Of a stretch of DNA of 64,000 nt, positions 6,881 to 64,000 are shown piece after piece. Source of the DNA: [Clostridium] symbiosum (GTDB lineage Bacteria > Bacillota > Clostridia > Lachnospirales > Lachnospiraceae); NCBI GenBank assembly GCA_021769625.1, contig JAETSN010000009.1, positions 3,052 through 67,051 on the forward strand. Reading direction: 5' to 3'. The stretch's first letter is position 1. Each line of letters begins with the position of its first letter. The translations under genes and the position numbers were made by a program. Under the pieces are notes generated by a model. The model saw only the letters and a program-made list of their open reading frames with translations, was not told the origin of the DNA and did no database searches.

Positions 6881-7010
6881 ACGATCACCTGCTTTCTATA
6901 TTCAGACTTATCTGCCACACCATAACTATATCACAGCTTTTGCGGAAAGTCTATTCTAACGGCAGATTATCTCCATCGGAGAATAACAGTTCAGCTTTCT
7001 ATATTATTTA

Positions 7011-56089: not shown

Positions 56090-56542
56090 TCACCGCTCCT
56101 CTATCATACTCTCCAGATACCCTCTGTCCCAGAGCAGTATCTTCAGCTTTTTCGCCGCCTCCACCGCGGGCTGCGTAAAATACTGGTTCGTCAGCACCGC
56201 GCCCACCATGCAATCATAGTAGTCCCTGCCGGCATAGGCCTCCTGCACCGCCTTTACGCCGACGCTGTCCCTGTAGCACTTGCACTGGATCGCATAGGTA
56301 ACGCCGTCCCGCTCCGCCAGAATATCGATCCCGTAGTCGCCGCTGCCCCTTGTCACCTCTACCTCCTGAAAGCCGCGCTTTCTCAATAAGTCTGCGCAGT
56401 AATACTCAAAATCATGGCCGTCCAGCAGATCAAAGTCCCTCCCGTATGCGCGCCTCTTTCTCACCTGCATCAGGATGAGACATAATATCAGGAAAACGGC
56501 TGCAGATGCTATTATTATGATCATGTATGCTTTTGTATCCAT
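56090..56542 (-). CDS. Membrane-anchored Mrr-type restriction endonuclease domain protein
   Basis: N-terminal TM helix; FEYYCADLL, GSGDYGIDI, AIQCK, TNQYFT (Mrr_cat pattern); ATG 56542. Confidence 0.85.
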   Translation of the reverse strand: MDTKAYMIIIIASAAVFLILCLILMQVRKRRAYGRDFDLLDGHDFEYYCADLLRKRGFQEVEVTRGSGDYGIDILAERDGVTYAIQCKCYRDSVGVKAVQEAYAGRDYYDCMVGAVLTNQYFTQPAVEAAKKLKILLWDRGYLESMIEER

Positions 56543-56567
56543 AATTCTATTGTGCTCCTTCTCTGTC

Positions 56568-57896
56568 TTACAGGAACTGTGCCATATAAACAGGAAAACA
56601 GAATATGTCTCTGTCTTTTTTTGCATCTTTCGTGTAAAGCAAGTATTTTTCCAGTATCCTGTCAGAATATTTTTCAGAAAACGCATCTAAAGAAGCATGT
56701 GTCTTATAGCCTGACGACTTAACTTCAATCGGACATATTTTATTCTTTTTTGCAAATAAAAAATCTATCTCGTAATTATGCCGTGATGTCACATTTAAAA
56801 AAGTATGATAGAACAACTCTTTTCCTTTTGCTGCTAAAGTCTGTGCCACAATATTTTCATATAAATACCCTAAATTTGTTCCCAACTTATCACTCAGCAA
56901 TTTTTCATATATGATATTTTCTGTAAAATCTCTGTTCTTAAATATAAGAGTCGTAAACAACCCCGTATCTGACAGAAAAAGCTTAAATTTTTCCAGATCT
57001 ATGCTGTTCGACATTCCCGCATCAGGATCATTCACATGGTATGCCACCAGCACTGTTTTTGACTCTTTCATTTCAGCTATCAGATCAAGAATGCTGTCTG
57101 CTCTCTCATTTGCCAGAACGCTGGACACCTGATATCTGGATGCATTTTTGTTAAGCTGGGCAGGAATCGAATCAAATAAAAGGGAAATCTTTCCTGTCGA
57201 ATCTATTTTGTGGAAATCATCCTCGTATAAATGAAGAATATCCCTTTTTACCATATCTACCTTTTTAAAATTGTTAGTGCGAAGATATTCATCCACCGCC
57301 TGCGGCATCCCACCCACCAACATATATAGCCTGAACTTCCTCATAAGCTTTCGATGAGCCGCATCGCCAACCCCTTTTTCCTTTTTAAATACCTGTTCAA
57401 GCAACGGCACAGTCACAGTATCTCCTATTGCCCAGAGAAACTCCTCATAATCCATGGGATACATATTGATTTTTCTCTCTTCACTGGGAATCAGAATATC
57501 CTTTACATTACGTTTTATACTGATCAAAGATCCTGTTTCTATATAATCATAACGATGGTCTTTTACCAGTATTTTTATTGCCTGTCTCGCCTGCGGGCAG
57601 AACTGCACCTCATCAAATATGATCAAAGAATTCCTGTCATATAATTCCGCGTTATATTGCAATTGCAATTGTAAAAAAATATAATTCAAATCTGACATAT
57701 CCGAAAACAGTTCCCGGATTTCTTTAGATGCAATAGAAAAATCAATTAAAATATAGCTCCTGTATTCCTTTTGGGCAAACTTTTCCACTATTGTGGATTT
57801 ACCGATTCGGCGGGCACCCTCTATCAATAATGCGGTCTTTCCTTCTGACTCCTGTTTCCACTCCAACAATTTATCATATATTTTCCTTTTAAACAT
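56568..57896 (-). CDS. AAA+ ATPase with DUF4143 and PD-(D/E)XK-like C-terminus (paralogue 3, AT-rich)
   Basis: GARRIGKS, IFDEVQ, ETGSLIS, YMLVGGMPQ, EIDF...PIEVKS. Confidence 0.88.
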   Translation of the reverse strand: MFKRKIYDKLLEWKQESEGKTALLIEGARRIGKSTIVEKFAQKEYRSYILIDFSIASKEIRELFSDMSDLNYIFLQLQLQYNAELYDRNSLIIFDEVQFCPQARQAIKILVKDHRYDYIETGSLISIKRNVKDILIPSEERKINMYPMDYEEFLWAIGDTVTVPLLEQVFKKEKGVGDAAHRKLMRKFRLYMLVGGMPQAVDEYLRTNNFKKVDMVKRDILHLYEDDFHKIDSTGKISLLFDSIPAQLNKNASRYQVSSVLANERADSILDLIAEMKESKTVLVAYHVNDPDAGMSNSIDLEKFKLFLSDTGLFTTLIFKNRDFTENIIYEKLLSDKLGTNLGYLYENIVAQTLAAKGKELFYHTFLNVTSRHNYEIDFLFAKKNKICPIEVKSSGYKTHASLDAFSEKYSDRILEKYLLYTKDAKKDRDIFCFPVYMAQFL

Positions 57897-57924
57897 AAAT
57901 TTCCCCTTTATTTTACAGTTTTTA

Positions 57925-58006
57925 CAAAATCGCGATTTTTATTCCGTCGTTTTCCCTCAAAATCGTTATTTTTATATTCTCATTATACCCCAAAATCGTT
58001 ATTTTT
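57925..58006. repeat. Three 16-bp boxes at exact 33-bp period upstream of ATPase paralogue 3
   Basis: CAAAATCGCGATTTTT (57925), CAAAATCGTTATTTTT (57958), CAAAATCGTTATTTTT (57991). Confidence 0.88.
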
Positions 58007-61524: not shown

Positions 61525-62400
61525 TTACAGTCCAAATACATGCTTCACAAACTGAAGCGCTCCTTTTGCATCCGCATCCAGTGCCGCCTCTGAGGTATCT
61601 TCCACCAGATTCCTCCACACTTTCACTTCCGAACCGATCGTGCCGCCCGGCATAACAAAGGGCTCCATAACAGCCGCATGCTGATAATTGATGTCGCGGA
61701 GCGCCTGGCCGATCTCATCCCAGGGCATAGTTCCCTTGCCCGGCACCTTGCGGTTTCTCTCTCCCAGATGTAAGTGGCAGAGCCTGTCGCCCGCTTTTCG
61801 GATTGCCGCCGCAATGTTGTCTTCTTCAATGTTCATATGGAACGTATCCAACATGATCTGAACATTCCTGCTGCCGACTGCATCCACATATTTGATCGCT
61901 TCATCGCAGGTATTCAAAAGATAGCCTTCAAATCTGTTCAGCACTTCCATGCCGAGCACAATGTCGCACTCCTCCGCTACTTTCGCGATCTTCTTCATAT
62001 TGGTGACGGATCTCTCAAAATCCCCTTCCTTGTCTATAGGTTTTGAATAATCCACCGGCCAGTAGGAATAAAGACCGCCGCCAAATGACTTGATATCCAT
62101 CTTTTTCAGCTTATGCAATGTCTCCGTGAAAAACTGTATTGCATTCTCCTGGATCTGCGGGTCCGCAGAACTCAGATTCTCGGCTGCCTGCGGCCCGTAC
62201 CCTGCAGTCAGGATAACATTTTTCTCCTTCGCATAATCGCGCAGTTCATACAACTGCTCGTCCGTCGTGTATGTACCCTTGAATGCCCCGCAGGAAATCT
62301 CCAGAATATCAAATCCCAGACTTGCGACCTTATCAATATACTTTTTATAGTCCGCAAACCATTCCTTCTCCCAATACGCAAAATAAATTCCGTACTTCAT
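61525..62400 (-). CDS. dpe: D-psicose (D-allulose)/D-tagatose 3-epimerase family protein
   Basis: N-terminus MKYGIYFAYWEKEW; YSYWPVDY, MEVLNRFE, LDTFHMNIEE, HLHLGE.NRK.PG, VMEPF; 291 aa, closely resembling clostridial/Ruminococcus DPEases as recalled. Confidence 0.88.
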   Translation of the reverse strand: MKYGIYFAYWEKEWFADYKKYIDKVASLGFDILEISCGAFKGTYTTDEQLYELRDYAKEKNVILTAGYGPQAAENLSSADPQIQENAIQFFTETLHKLKKMDIKSFGGGLYSYWPVDYSKPIDKEGDFERSVTNMKKIAKVAEECDIVLGMEVLNRFEGYLLNTCDEAIKYVDAVGSRNVQIMLDTFHMNIEEDNIAAAIRKAGDRLCHLHLGERNRKVPGKGTMPWDEIGQALRDINYQHAAVMEPFVMPGGTIGSEVKVWRNLVEDTSEAALDADAKGALQFVKHVFGL

Positions 62401-62438
62401 ACCCCTTGCTGCCTCCTTTTATATTTAAAATTCTTTAA

Positions 62439-63413
62439 TTAAAGTTTCCTGTTCTGCAAATCTATCCCTTCCATACGCTTTAGAATAGCTCCTCTAATTT
62501 TCTCATGCAAATATACCGGATTCAGTTTTGACTTTCCATACTTTAAATAGGAGCCCTCCGTATTTTTTGCCAACAGGCTCGCAAAATATCTCTCCCAACT
62601 GAAATATTCTCTACTGTCAATATACCTTTCCGGTTCTTCAAGAATTTCCCTGATTTCCTTACCATCGATCAAACCGGTTTTCAATATGATCCATTCAAAA
62701 GACTCCGGAAGATACAACTTTATATTTCCACGTTCCTTTGCCAGTTCATATAATCCGTTCATTTCAGGCCCGATCGCAGCCCCATCAGCAATAACACAGG
62801 TTTCCTCCAGTCCGCTGTCTTTCACGGTTGTAAAGATATTGGATTTCCCCCCTGCGCTTTCACAGGCTATGCCTTTTTCTCCACACACTGTTTTAAAAAA
62901 CTCATAACCGGAGTTTGAATCTTCCACAATGATCTTTTCAGGTTTTATCGGAATCTGCCGAAGATCAGAATATATACGATATATCTGCTGATACACCTTT
63001 TTGGTATTTTGATATTTCCCTGATGCATACAATCCATAAATTTCCTCTACACTATATGGAAGATTATAAAGATTTTCTCTTGTGATCAGCACAAAGTAAT
63101 TATCCGAGCCGCGCACCGCCGATGCAAATTCTTCCGTACTAATGAATGCATTTTCTTCGTCAATAAAAAAAATACTGTCGGAAGAATTCTGCAGGATCAA
63201 TTTCCAGCTTTTCCCTTCCAATATCCTGCAGGAAACATCTGAGATCACATCTACGCCGCTCGACTCCCCCAGATTTTCAGCCTGCCTCAACATGTTGATA
63301 AGCGTTGTCTTTCCGGTGGCACTGTCTCCCTGGATCACAGTGATATTCCTTTTTATTTCGAATTCATAATGCAATTTATTATTTTGTACGATTATCCTGT
63401 GCTTTCCTTTCAT
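62439..63413 (-). CDS. Hypothetical P-loop ATPase fused to a TOPRIM-like domain
   Basis: Walker A GDSATGKT, Walker B IFFIDEE; C-terminal half IIVEDS...AGGK...VIADG...ESFE. Confidence 0.7.
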   Translation of the reverse strand: MKGKHRIIVQNNKLHYEFEIKRNITVIQGDSATGKTTLINMLRQAENLGESSGVDVISDVSCRILEGKSWKLILQNSSDSIFFIDEENAFISTEEFASAVRGSDNYFVLITRENLYNLPYSVEEIYGLYASGKYQNTKKVYQQIYRIYSDLRQIPIKPEKIIVEDSNSGYEFFKTVCGEKGIACESAGGKSNIFTTVKDSGLEETCVIADGAAIGPEMNGLYELAKERGNIKLYLPESFEWIILKTGLIDGKEIREILEEPERYIDSREYFSWERYFASLLAKNTEGSYLKYGKSKLNPVYLHEKIRGAILKRMEGIDLQNRKL

Positions 63414-63424
63414 CCTCTCCCCAC

Positions 63425-63862
63425 CTAAACATATGAGACTGCAATATCCACAAACTCCGCCATATTATGAACGATCTCTCCTGTATTCAGAATTCTGATC
63501 TCAAAATCCCCGGAGCCAAAATCCATAATATGACGAAGATTAATCGTCCTGTCTTTCATCTCCCCAAGTCTTAAAATCCATTTTGCACAATTATTGCCGC
63601 ATACAGATGCATTAAAAATCCTGTCGCCATCAAATGCTATCAGGATCAGCGTCTTTACTCCTCCGGACAATTCCTTTGTAGAGATCGGTCCCAGAACGGG
63701 GCTTTCTATCAGCCTTGCGCTTACCACTTCAGACTGATCTATATCTTTTATCATTTCCACTGACAATGGATCCGTAATCCATTCTTCTTCATATCTGTTG
63801 TCAAAATAAGTCGGCGGATGATAGATAGCCCCATCCATATTTCCCAAAAAAACACTCAGCAT
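63425..63862 (-). CDS. DUF4869-like protein
   Basis: PTYFDNRYEEEW...MIKDID...SPVLGPI..ELSGGVKTLIL...CGNNCAKWIL; 11 nt upstream of the ATPase gene. Confidence 0.75.
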   Translation of the reverse strand: MLSVFLGNMDGAIYHPPTYFDNRYEEEWITDPLSVEMIKDIDQSEVVSARLIESPVLGPISTKELSGGVKTLILIAFDGDRIFNASVCGNNCAKWILRLGEMKDRTINLRHIMDFGSGDFEIRILNTGEIVHNMAEFVDIAVSYV

Positions 63863-63947
63863 AGTGAACCTCTCTCTTTATAAAAAGAACTTCCAAAACC
63901 ATCTACTGTTTCAGAAGTTCTCGCATAATCTTCTATTCTAATTCTTC

Positions 63948-64000
63948 TTAAGCGTCAATACCCTGCTCTTTAATGAACCGCATCACATCCCCCACGGTCT
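63948..64000 (-). CDS. Acyl carrier protein, 3' end (partial)
   Basis: Reads ...TVGDVMRFIKEQGIDA-stop, matching the ACP C-terminal helix TVGD(V/A)xxY/FI. Only 16 codons visible. Confidence 0.6.
   Translation of the reverse strand, partial: TVGDVMRFIKEQGIDA

Follow-up and report, generated by a model that had tools for sequence, protein, structure and literature searches.

Modules that couple an ATP-binding cassette (ABC) ATPase to a TOPRIM domain, such as OLD, Gabija, PARIS, AbiL and retron Eco8, are a major theme of anti-phage immunity, and the way in which ATP gates the nuclease in them is still under study. The OLD-family nucleases comprise Class 1 (P2 Old and the T. scotoductus OLD), Class 2 (Gabija GajA) and Class 3 (retron Eco8). 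Their architecture is built around an AAA_15/AAA_21-type ABC ATPase with a dimerization insert (PMC10568477). In ABC dimers, the signature motif acts in trans on the ATP held at the Walker A motif of the partner, and in TOPRIM domains metal A is bound by a Glu and a DxD motif and metal B by an Asp/Glu and an S/D-x-E motif (PMC7049728). Here, we describe a two-gene cassette from a 64,000-nucleotide stretch of the [Clostridium] symbiosum genome (G000:C97:3052-67051, hereafter the window), which codes for a 145-residue DUF4869 protein and a 324-residue ATPase. On balance we lean, if only slightly, toward reading it as a two-subunit ABC-type ATP switch that is coupled to a TOPRIM-like metal-dependent phosphodiesterase and deployed in inter-genome conflict; its most likely role would be in anti-phage or anti-plasmid defense, in abortive infection, or as an addiction-like module.

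The cassette has something in common with each of the closest described systems. With the OLD family, it shares an ABC-type ATPase placed N-terminal to a predicted TOPRIM-type domain in one chain, an S-x-E motif, and an accessory, horizontally moving habit. It differs in the length of the ATPase (about 324 residues versus 520-750), in having neither the helical lobe nor the dimerization insert, in the reduction of DxD to D-G-A, and in having no match to PF20469 and none above cut-off to AAA_15 or AAA_21 (15 of 104 ATPase members show weak, sub-threshold AAA_15 matches). As in PARIS, two genes would unite the ABC and TOPRIM functions, AriA is among the fold matches of DUF4869, and the DUF4435 motif register can be followed; further, the occasional ATPase-nuclease gene fusions of PARIS (PMC11464382) find a parallel in fusions of the cassette genes. 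However, PARIS splits the ATPase from the nuclease, whereas the cassette keeps its nuclease-like domain with the P-loop half and divides the ABC domain itself; moreover, it shows no PF14491 or AAA_15 match, is not carried on phage satellites, and neither of its proteins is matched by the PADLOC AriA/AriB models. AbiL/RloA-RloB also consists of two overlapping genes, and the RloB motifs (EG..TE..Yf, DxD and FE.W) are colinear with those of the cassette. In one cassette lineage the pair is found where the restriction-linked rloA/rloB genes lie (PMC2928727), in the interval from hsdS to hsdR. Unlike that system, the cassette has no PF13707 or AAA_21 match, its TOPRIM-like domain is fused to the ATPase, and its small partner appears to be an ABC remnant rather than a nuclease; the PADLOC AbiL models match neither protein.

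Beyond the TOPRIM-bearing systems, ABCE1, ABCF and EcfA-A' provide a precedent for two ABC-derived modules placed head-to-tail, as proposed here for the cassette, with a single consensus site. In the cassette, however, the second site would be deleted in both partners and not just mutated, and the two modules are small proteins in their own right, to which a nuclease-like effector is coupled. Csn2 of the type II-A CRISPR systems, whose fold has been described as ABC-like but devoid of ATPase function, is likewise among the fold matches of DUF4869, but it belongs to another sequence family with other partners, and DUF4869 has kept an invariant signature. The initial annotation of this locus had recognized no described system in the arrangement, and this assessment stands: no PADLOC model covers it, and a literature search found no paper on DUF4869 or on such a split architecture. 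By its Pfam domains the cassette falls outside OLD, PARIS and AbiL, yet it probably works like them.

In profile comparisons and in the predicted secondary structure, the N-domain of the 324-residue protein (residues 1-150) is an ABC-type core without the signature lobe, as the initial annotation had proposed. It aligns in hhalign with 15 nucleotide-binding domains (NBDs) of ABC transporters (ABC_tran) at a probability of 96.1% (E 3e-9), and with 19 OLD-family proteins at 75%, the latter score being carried by the N-terminal beta-hairpin and P-loop block. The order of its elements is a beta-hairpin and a strand leading into the P-loop, the P-loop with its helix, two short strands, and the Walker B strand (IFFIDE), followed by a D-loop-like helix, a strand ending in T111-R112, and a C-terminal beta-hairpin. 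The Walker A Lys and the Walker B Asp stand 50 residues apart with no helical lobe between them, and no signature motif occurs anywhere in the protein. Residue conservation, derived from 104 ATPase sequences, is given in Table 1, as is that of DUF4869 from 71 sequences; all the motifs quoted in the initial annotation are present, and most are conserved in the family alignments. By family assignment the protein is poorly marked: it passes the threshold of no family in Pfam, NCBIfam or PADLOC, with weak P-loop matches at residues ~10-47; the Pfam matches of the ATPase members all lie below cut-off and mix ABC-type with AAA+/STAND-type families; and sequence and profile searches of the PDB returned generic P-loop matches and no relative by sequence. 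Some members carry the public name 'translation initiation factor 2' (P0035, P0062, P0099; NC_014825.1). No IF-2 family is matched at E <= 1, and therefore the name is apparently a propagated mis-annotation; the sole GTPase match of the ATPase is a weak one to the RsgA P-loop.

The small partner matches PF16163 over its entire profile (198 bits, E 5.6e-59, positions 1-128 of 128, against a gathering score of 28.9 bits), and its AlphaFold2 model, computed for DUF4869 alone, has a mean predicted local distance difference test score (pLDDT) of 95.7 and a predicted template-modeling score (pTM) of 0.89. The top 50 Foldseek matches of this model in the PDB are almost all ABC ATPases, among them ABCF1, the P-gp NBDs, PtuA, ABCE1, AriA (8v47_H), SMC1A, Rad50, MukB, UvrA and EcfA, with Csn2 in addition. 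The hhalign comparison with ABC NBDs is weak (24%, E 8e-4) and colinear at template columns 89-235, in a register that sets LSGG on the signature, NLRH on the H-loop, and EIRILNTGEIV on the 'D.v.li..G.i' C-terminal hairpin. In the fused model described below, a beta-strand follows the signature helix. There is no Walker A, no Pfam ABC family is matched by the DUF4869 members (Pfam scan, E <= 1), and PDB sequence and profile searches gave no match. Hence, DUF4869 looks like an ABC-derived NBD from which strands 1-3 are gone, along with the P-loop and the acids of Walker B, and which has kept the signature, the H-loop His and the C-terminal elements. The initial annotation had cast it as the missing signature subdomain of the ATPase. 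Its ABC derivation and its signature gain support from the Foldseek list and the colinear register, but the protein appears to be nearly a whole NBD without a P-loop, with a Walker-B-like strand, an H-loop His and a C-terminal hairpin of its own. The pair accordingly looks like a heterodimer of two unlike NBDs that share one composite site. As a separate observation, the D-loop-like helix of DUF4869 begins with an invariant C-G-x-N-C (C88-G-N-N-C92, window 63587-63601); this cysteine pair is without counterpart in ordinary ABC domains and is possibly a redox or metal site, or structural.

The two proteins were also modeled together, from a paired alignment in which the in-frame stop of DUF4869 was read as Gly in 29 loci and to which three natural fusions were added. 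The AlphaFold2 model of the fused pair has a pLDDT of 92.3 and a pTM of 0.72. Its Foldseek matches in the PDB include GajA (8x5i_A, E 2.3e-4, probability 0.96; also 8tk0) and TsOLD (6p74, E 1.6e-3, probability 0.96), as well as retron Eco8 effectors and MutS; ABCF1 ranks fourth, and OLD-family proteins stand above most plain ABC proteins. In BFVD, the best matches are twin-NBD ABCE1-like and ABCF-like proteins (probability 0.98-1.0 over 360-410 columns). These twin-NBD matches and the rank of ABCF1 are consistent with two complementary NBDs. Since a D-loop-like helix, a switch strand and a terminal hairpin are found in each partner, two NBDs reduced in reciprocal fashion describe the pair better than a single domain divided in two.

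Following the N-domain, residues 155-245 of the ATPase probably adopt a TOPRIM-type fold, a proposal that we make with some confidence from motif order and the structural model. The four strands (fused-model residues 310-313, 333-336, 355-358 and 381-384) alternate with helices, and three motifs run in register with those of RloB and DUF4435: EDSNSG..FF with EG..TE..Yf of RloB and VE..dD of DUF4435; ADGA with the DrD of both; and PESFEW with FE.W ('FElW') of RloB and Y.iEN of DUF4435. S238-x-E240 resembles the metal-B motif of TsOLD, whose ligands are S478-x-E480 (PMC7049728), and E164/D165, D210 and S238-x-E240 all stand at the expected topological positions. The TOPRIM assignment made in the initial annotation agrees with the topology, the motif order and the rank of OLD/GajA as top PDB fold matches, but the domain fails membership tests at the level of Pfam; the caveat entered there, that the second Asp of DxD is absent, was well founded.

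The two genes belong together. In 76 of 80 loci from GTDB species genomes, the ATPase has DUF4869 as its immediate same-strand neighbor, a recurrence far past chance; the four exceptions are contig ends on that side (L019, L043, L074) and an ATPase match without its first 79 residues (L056). The order is reversed in two of the 80 loci, the gap is -4 to 15 nucleotides in most related loci, and clustering of all flanking open reading frames in the related loci found no third conserved gene. In a family survey of 301 genomes (one for each of 300 Lachnospiraceae-family genera plus the genome of the window), 42 contain DUF4869 and 42 the ATPase, the overlap being 37; the genomes with a single partner have mostly fragments or pseudogene remnants. 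Divergence runs in parallel in the two proteins (r = 0.82 for the pairwise distances, Mantel p <= 0.001), and three natural end-to-end fusions (P0398, P0400, P0401) join them with linkers of 0-6 residues. The pair is thus obligate, co-conserved and co-evolving.

From these elements we propose the following mechanism. The large subunit, having lost its helical/signature lobe, would supply the nucleotide-binding core, with K35 of Walker A, D85/E86 of Walker B and the switch residue R112, and would continue into a small TOPRIM-type domain that resembles RloB/DUF4435 (E164/D165, D210, S238-x-E240), followed by a helical tail. DUF4869 would be the complementary module, lacking the P-loop and Walker B acids and retaining S66-G67-G68, the H-loop His and the C-terminal hairpin. 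The two are predicted to associate 1:1, in the head-to-tail manner of NBDs in an ABC dimer, in a physical complex that sandwiches ATP at one composite site, to which the large subunit would contribute K35, D85/E86 and R112, and DUF4869 the SGG and perhaps H111; the second ATP site would have been deleted on both sides. ATP binding and hydrolysis, by closing and opening the single site, would then gate the TOPRIM-like effector, as has been proposed for OLD, Gabija and PARIS, and the effector would cut nucleic acid, either DNA or tRNA, in the manner of OLD, Gabija, PARIS and AbiL. More tentatively, with our judgment falling a little short of even, the cassette may define a new class of ABC and TOPRIM conflict systems, in which an ABC dimer is pared down to what one ATP sandwich requires, a P-loop half-NBD is fused to the nuclease and a signature half-NBD is the obligatory second jaw; this second jaw is possibly also the sensor of the trigger or an antidote.

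The cassette is a horizontally mobile accessory module. Comparison of occupied and empty sites by blastn (the window locus L002 against G008 at L099) shows homology ending at L002 5481 and returning near 6983, past the diverged terminator hairpin; the insert holds the DUF4869 and ATPase genes and nothing more, and no integrase, transposase or flanking repeats that would account for the insertion were found at the window site. The AT-richer islet pointed out in the initial annotation is borne out by a GC content of 0.385-0.415 across the pair versus 0.46-0.58 in the flanks. In a comparison across the genus anchored on rsmI/ACP, the ATPase is matched in only two of 12 other species: G008 has an empty site, in which the ACP gene is followed by the epimerase after ~85 nucleotides, and a 57% copy elsewhere; G007 retains a 70-residue ATPase remnant (residues 110-182, 70% identity) directly after ACP. 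In G012, G010, G003 and G005, ACP is followed by spmA without the pair. The junction downstream of ACP (window ~61525-63950; loci L098-L105) is itself a variable hot spot in the genus: G006 and G001 have other DNA there, and the epimerase is found in this genome and G008 only.

Beyond the genus, about 14% of the sampled family genera carry the cassette, and it is very common in gut and rumen Bacillota; each protein forms thousands of clusters at 90% identity, and the ATPase 2,615 clusters at 50%. The ATPase tree nests an Actinomycetota clade within Bacillota, places a Bacteroidota copy as sister to a Ruminococcaceae copy (100/100 support), and puts Negativicutes copies within Lachnospiraceae clades; the cassette therefore moves between phyla. 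Several genomes have 2-4 diverged copies. In Blautia wexlerae, the same protein occupies one fixed site in 10 contigs, which argues that the cassette is stable inside a species and differently placed across species. Decay is frequent, with ~30 intact ATPase loci against ~17 that are truncated or contain stops in the family survey. Intact orphan DUF4869 genes occur in three genomes (G531, G548, G034), one of them after hsdM-hsdS, and intact orphan ATPase genes in none of the 301; this asymmetry, small as it is, fits a potentially harmful large subunit.

Some of these features are reminiscent of toxin-antitoxin-like addiction, in which the 324-residue ATPase-nuclease would be the toxin and DUF4869, instead of sharing in catalysis, would be the antidote, a decoy NBD that keeps the toxin inactive by capping its P-loop. 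Post-segregational killing would then maintain the cassette, whether or not it also brings an anti-phage benefit. The small upstream and larger downstream gene with translational coupling, the lone 1.45-kb insert without mobility genes amid housekeeping genes, the frequent decay, the orphan pattern and an extra tandem DUF4869 copy in one locus (L008) would all be in keeping with it. Nevertheless, we think this account unlikely: the conserved SGG, K70/T71 and H111 of DUF4869 suit a catalytic partner more than a simple cap, natural fusions of both proteins are unusual for such pairs, and the orphan counts (3 versus 0) are small.

Against the favored reading of an ABC-type switch with a TOPRIM-like effector in inter-genome conflict stand several observations, which we gather here. 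At the level of the domains, the second Asp of DxD is replaced by Ala212 (D-G-A) in at least 90% of members; the hhalign probabilities of the C-domain are low (15-27% with DUF4435, 10-19% with RloB); no TOPRIM model is among the 25 Pfam families listed at E <= 1 for the 104 members; and a six-frame genome search gave no match to PF20469 at E <= 1e-8 and none to PF14491 or PF13707 at E <= 1e-10 (PF20469 is matched in 19 of 151 genomes of the order in the six-frame search at E <= 1e-8). The Foldseek scores of DUF4869 are weak (best E 3e-3, query TM-score at most 0.45), and the PDB matches of the fused model are marginal, with a TM-score of about 0.2 and a query that is not colinear. In PADLOC v2.0.0, DUF4869 has no match at E <= 1, and the ATPase shows only an N-terminal P-loop likeness to LmuB, PbeC and PtuA (best E 6e-5). 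At the level of genomic context, 280 neighbors within three genes on either side of ~54 loci, classified with Pfam and PADLOC, are chiefly housekeeping and transport genes, and the cassette is essentially absent from the phage and plasmid databases.

The domain-level results bear on whether the C-terminal half is related to TOPRIM at all. It could instead be some other Rossmann-like alpha/beta domain with a different activity, for example nucleotide or second-messenger hydrolysis or pure protein-protein signaling, and the pair would then be an NTP-dependent switch; the missing Pfam family would then be expected, as would hhalign probabilities below 1% against the C-termini of the 19 OLD proteins, and the marginal OLD/GajA fold matches might be driven by the ABC part. 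We hold this to be improbable. Recognized TOPRIM families score 0.1-30% against each other in the same set-up, which makes the hhalign test a low-powered one; the three motifs are colinear with both RloB and DUF4435; the acidic residues are placed in the TOPRIM manner, at the C-terminal end of strand 1 and of strand 3 and again past strand 4; and the ranking of OLD-family proteins over most plain ABC proteins in the PDB search is harder to reconcile with it.

The incomplete DxD, with D-G-A nearly invariant, also raises the prospect of a TOPRIM-type domain that does not cut. RecR does not cleave DNA. It is a TOPRIM protein (PMC10568477), and the pair might be an analog of RecF (ABC) and RecR (TOPRIM), a non-nucleolytic DNA-transaction factor whose C-domain only binds metal or DNA and whose ATP switch puts the complex onto DNA, or clamps it there, in the course of repair or recombination. 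Insertion beside housekeeping genes and the presence of MutS and SMC-type ABC proteins among the fold matches agree with such a role. On the other hand, presence in ~14% of genera, cross-phylum transfer, multi-copy genomes and many pseudogenes are not typical of a repair factor, five further acidic positions show full or almost full conservation, and one lineage lies within a type I restriction-modification operon, so that we give this possibility little credence. The coupling of the switch to a phosphodiesterase in conflict between genomes remains the reading that we favor.

With respect to genomic context, for which the initial annotation had suggested a check on enrichment near defense genes, the neighborhoods are mostly not defense islands. 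Scattered among the 280 neighbors are, nevertheless, three integrases, AbiL, one AbiE pair, a type IV restriction endonuclease, HsdS, BrxP and a reverse transcriptase. The one lineage inside a type I restriction-modification operon (L157, L158; metagenome contigs) lies between hsdS and hsdR, in the order hsdM, hsdS, DUF3990, an 81-residue open reading frame, DUF3791, a half-HsdS read through into DUF4869, the ATPase and hsdR. Five of 39 long DUF4869 open reading frames are such HsdS read-throughs. The half-HsdS that runs without a stop into DUF4869 in these two loci could be what is left of a shufflon-like hsdS, or else a genuine fusion of HsdS and DUF4869. Plasmid carriage is confined to three large replicons. 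Five 'Bacteriophage sp.' matches were discarded as evidence of phage carriage, being unverified fecal contigs, of which the one examined is a fragment of a bacterial chromosome: L151 (MT835885.1, INPHARED, UNVERIFIED) has the order hprK, PHP, ROK, murB, rapZ, the pair, whiA, dnaE, pfk, ECF-S and proC. The remaining four MT83xxxx 'phage' matches are unannotated fecal contigs.

At the window site, both open reading frames lie as initially annotated, tightly linked across an 11-nucleotide gap (Table 1). The GGGGAGAGG between them is a strong ribosome-binding site, and translational coupling of the two genes is likely from this arrangement. The pair is located between the ACP gene (stop at 63948-63950) and the gene for a TIM-barrel sugar epimerase (61525-62400), which is followed downstream by spmA/spmB; on the other side, past the window end, the ACP gene is accompanied by rsmI, a YfiC-like methyltransferase, yaaT/PSP1, holB and other housekeeping genes. 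The terminator-like hairpin of the ACP gene has an equivalent at the empty site. A promoter scan predicted none between this hairpin and the DUF4869 start, and the ~38 nucleotides from the ATPase stop to the epimerase start hold no terminator. Since the hairpin lies ~20 nucleotides upstream of DUF4869, expression of the pair may depend on read-through from the ACP gene.

Table 1. Features of the DUF4869-ATPase cassette, in window positions.
Feature	Position	Strand	Basis or conservation
Whole cassette, ~1.45-kb low-GC insert relative to the empty ACP/epimerase site	62430..63883	(-)	blastn, occupied vs empty site
Terminator-like hairpin of the upstream ACP gene, ~20 nucleotides before the DUF4869 start	63882..63921	(-)	Inverted repeat I4, 14-nucleotide arms, then T-run
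DUF4869 gene, 145 residues	63425..63862	(-)	PF16163 match
Signature-like motif L65-S66-G67-G68-V-K70-T71-L72	63647..63670	(-)	S66, G67, G68 invariant; K70, T71, L72 >=90%
Degenerate Walker-B-like strand F83-N84-A85-S86, without Asp-Glu	63605..63616	(-)	FNAS nearly invariant
H-loop-like strand I107-N-L-R-H111	63530..63544	(-)	H111 >=90%; aligned to ABC H-loop TH
Intergenic spacer, 11 nucleotides, with ribosome-binding site GGGGAGAGG overlapping the DUF4869 stop region	63414..63424	(-)	Sequence read
ATPase gene, 324 residues: predicted ABC-type P-loop core, TOPRIM-like domain and helical tail	62439..63413	(-)	Open reading frame
N-domain, residues 1-150, without helical/signature lobe	62964..63413	(-)	hhalign, AlphaFold2 secondary structure
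Walker A G29-D-S-A-T-G34-K35-T36	63306..63329	(-)	G34, K35 invariant
Walker B I81-F-F-I-D85-E86, with predicted catalytic Glu	63156..63173	(-)	E86 invariant; D85 >=90%
T111-R112 at the H-loop position, Arg for His	63078..63083	(-)	R112 invariant; end of strand after D-loop-like helix
C-domain core, residues 155-245, beta-alpha-beta-alpha-beta-alpha-beta, TOPRIM-like	62679..62951	(-)	AlphaFold2 model, hhalign
Motif 1 I-I-V-E164-D165-S-N-S-G169, end of strand 1, putative metal ligands	62907..62933	(-)	D165 invariant; E164, G169 >=90%
Motif 2 V-I-A-D210-G211-A212-A-I-G215, end of strand 3	62769..62795	(-)	D210 invariant; G211, A212, A213, G215 >=90%
Motif 3 P236-E237-S238-F239-E240-W241, after strand 4	62691..62708	(-)	E240 invariant; P236, E237, S238, F239 >=90%
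C-terminal helical extension, residues 246-324, with E274 (SWE), Y292 and K294	62442..62678	(-)	AlphaFold2 helices; E274, Y292 invariant

A few further observations concern variants of the family and the rest of the window. At L008:2031-2920, two diverged tandem DUF4869 genes (73% and 54% identical to that of the window) lie upstream of one ATPase gene. G031:C21 (L156) represents a divergent subfamily, with an ATPase ~29% identical in a 361-residue frame, a DUF4869 match of 103 bits and an unchanged architecture; given this subfamily, the family is wider than the analyzed set of 45-75% identity. Three chimeric open reading frames from metagenome proteins, each on a single contig (P0407, P0247, P0248), were also seen: one joins an AAA_15/AAA_21 ABC ATPase to the C-terminal 100 residues of DUF4869, and two combine the first 200 ATPase residues with unrelated sequence, one tail looking by eye like a methyltransferase of the restriction-modification/BREX type. 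They are probably assembly or recombination artefacts, yet hint at defense-gene neighbors. Elsewhere in the window, a second low-GC islet (56400-58000, GC 0.31-0.41; L002 1-948, minus strand) holds a gene of more than 316 residues that starts MFKRKIYDKLLEWK... and has the P-loop GARRIGKST; it is possibly another accessory insert, and we take its product to resemble an AAA ATPase of the AAA_14/DUF4143 type.

If the cassette does define a new class of ABC and TOPRIM conflict systems, it would be the first natural ABC pair with a reciprocal physical deletion of the second site. With two chains that add up to ~470 residues and what looks like one ATP site, it may also be the smallest natural version of an ABC and TOPRIM module, and its small size and apparent single site would make it a tractable model for the coupling of ATPase and nuclease and for the evolution of ABC proteins by reciprocal loss. 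The database labels of its proteins are currently 'hypothetical', 'DUF4869' or, wrongly, 'translation initiation factor 2'; given these labels and an abundance of more than 2,600 clusters at 50% identity, a functional assignment would annotate thousands of genes. On the new-class reading, the cassette would also be an abundant module of immunity or addiction in the human gut microbiota that has so far escaped study.

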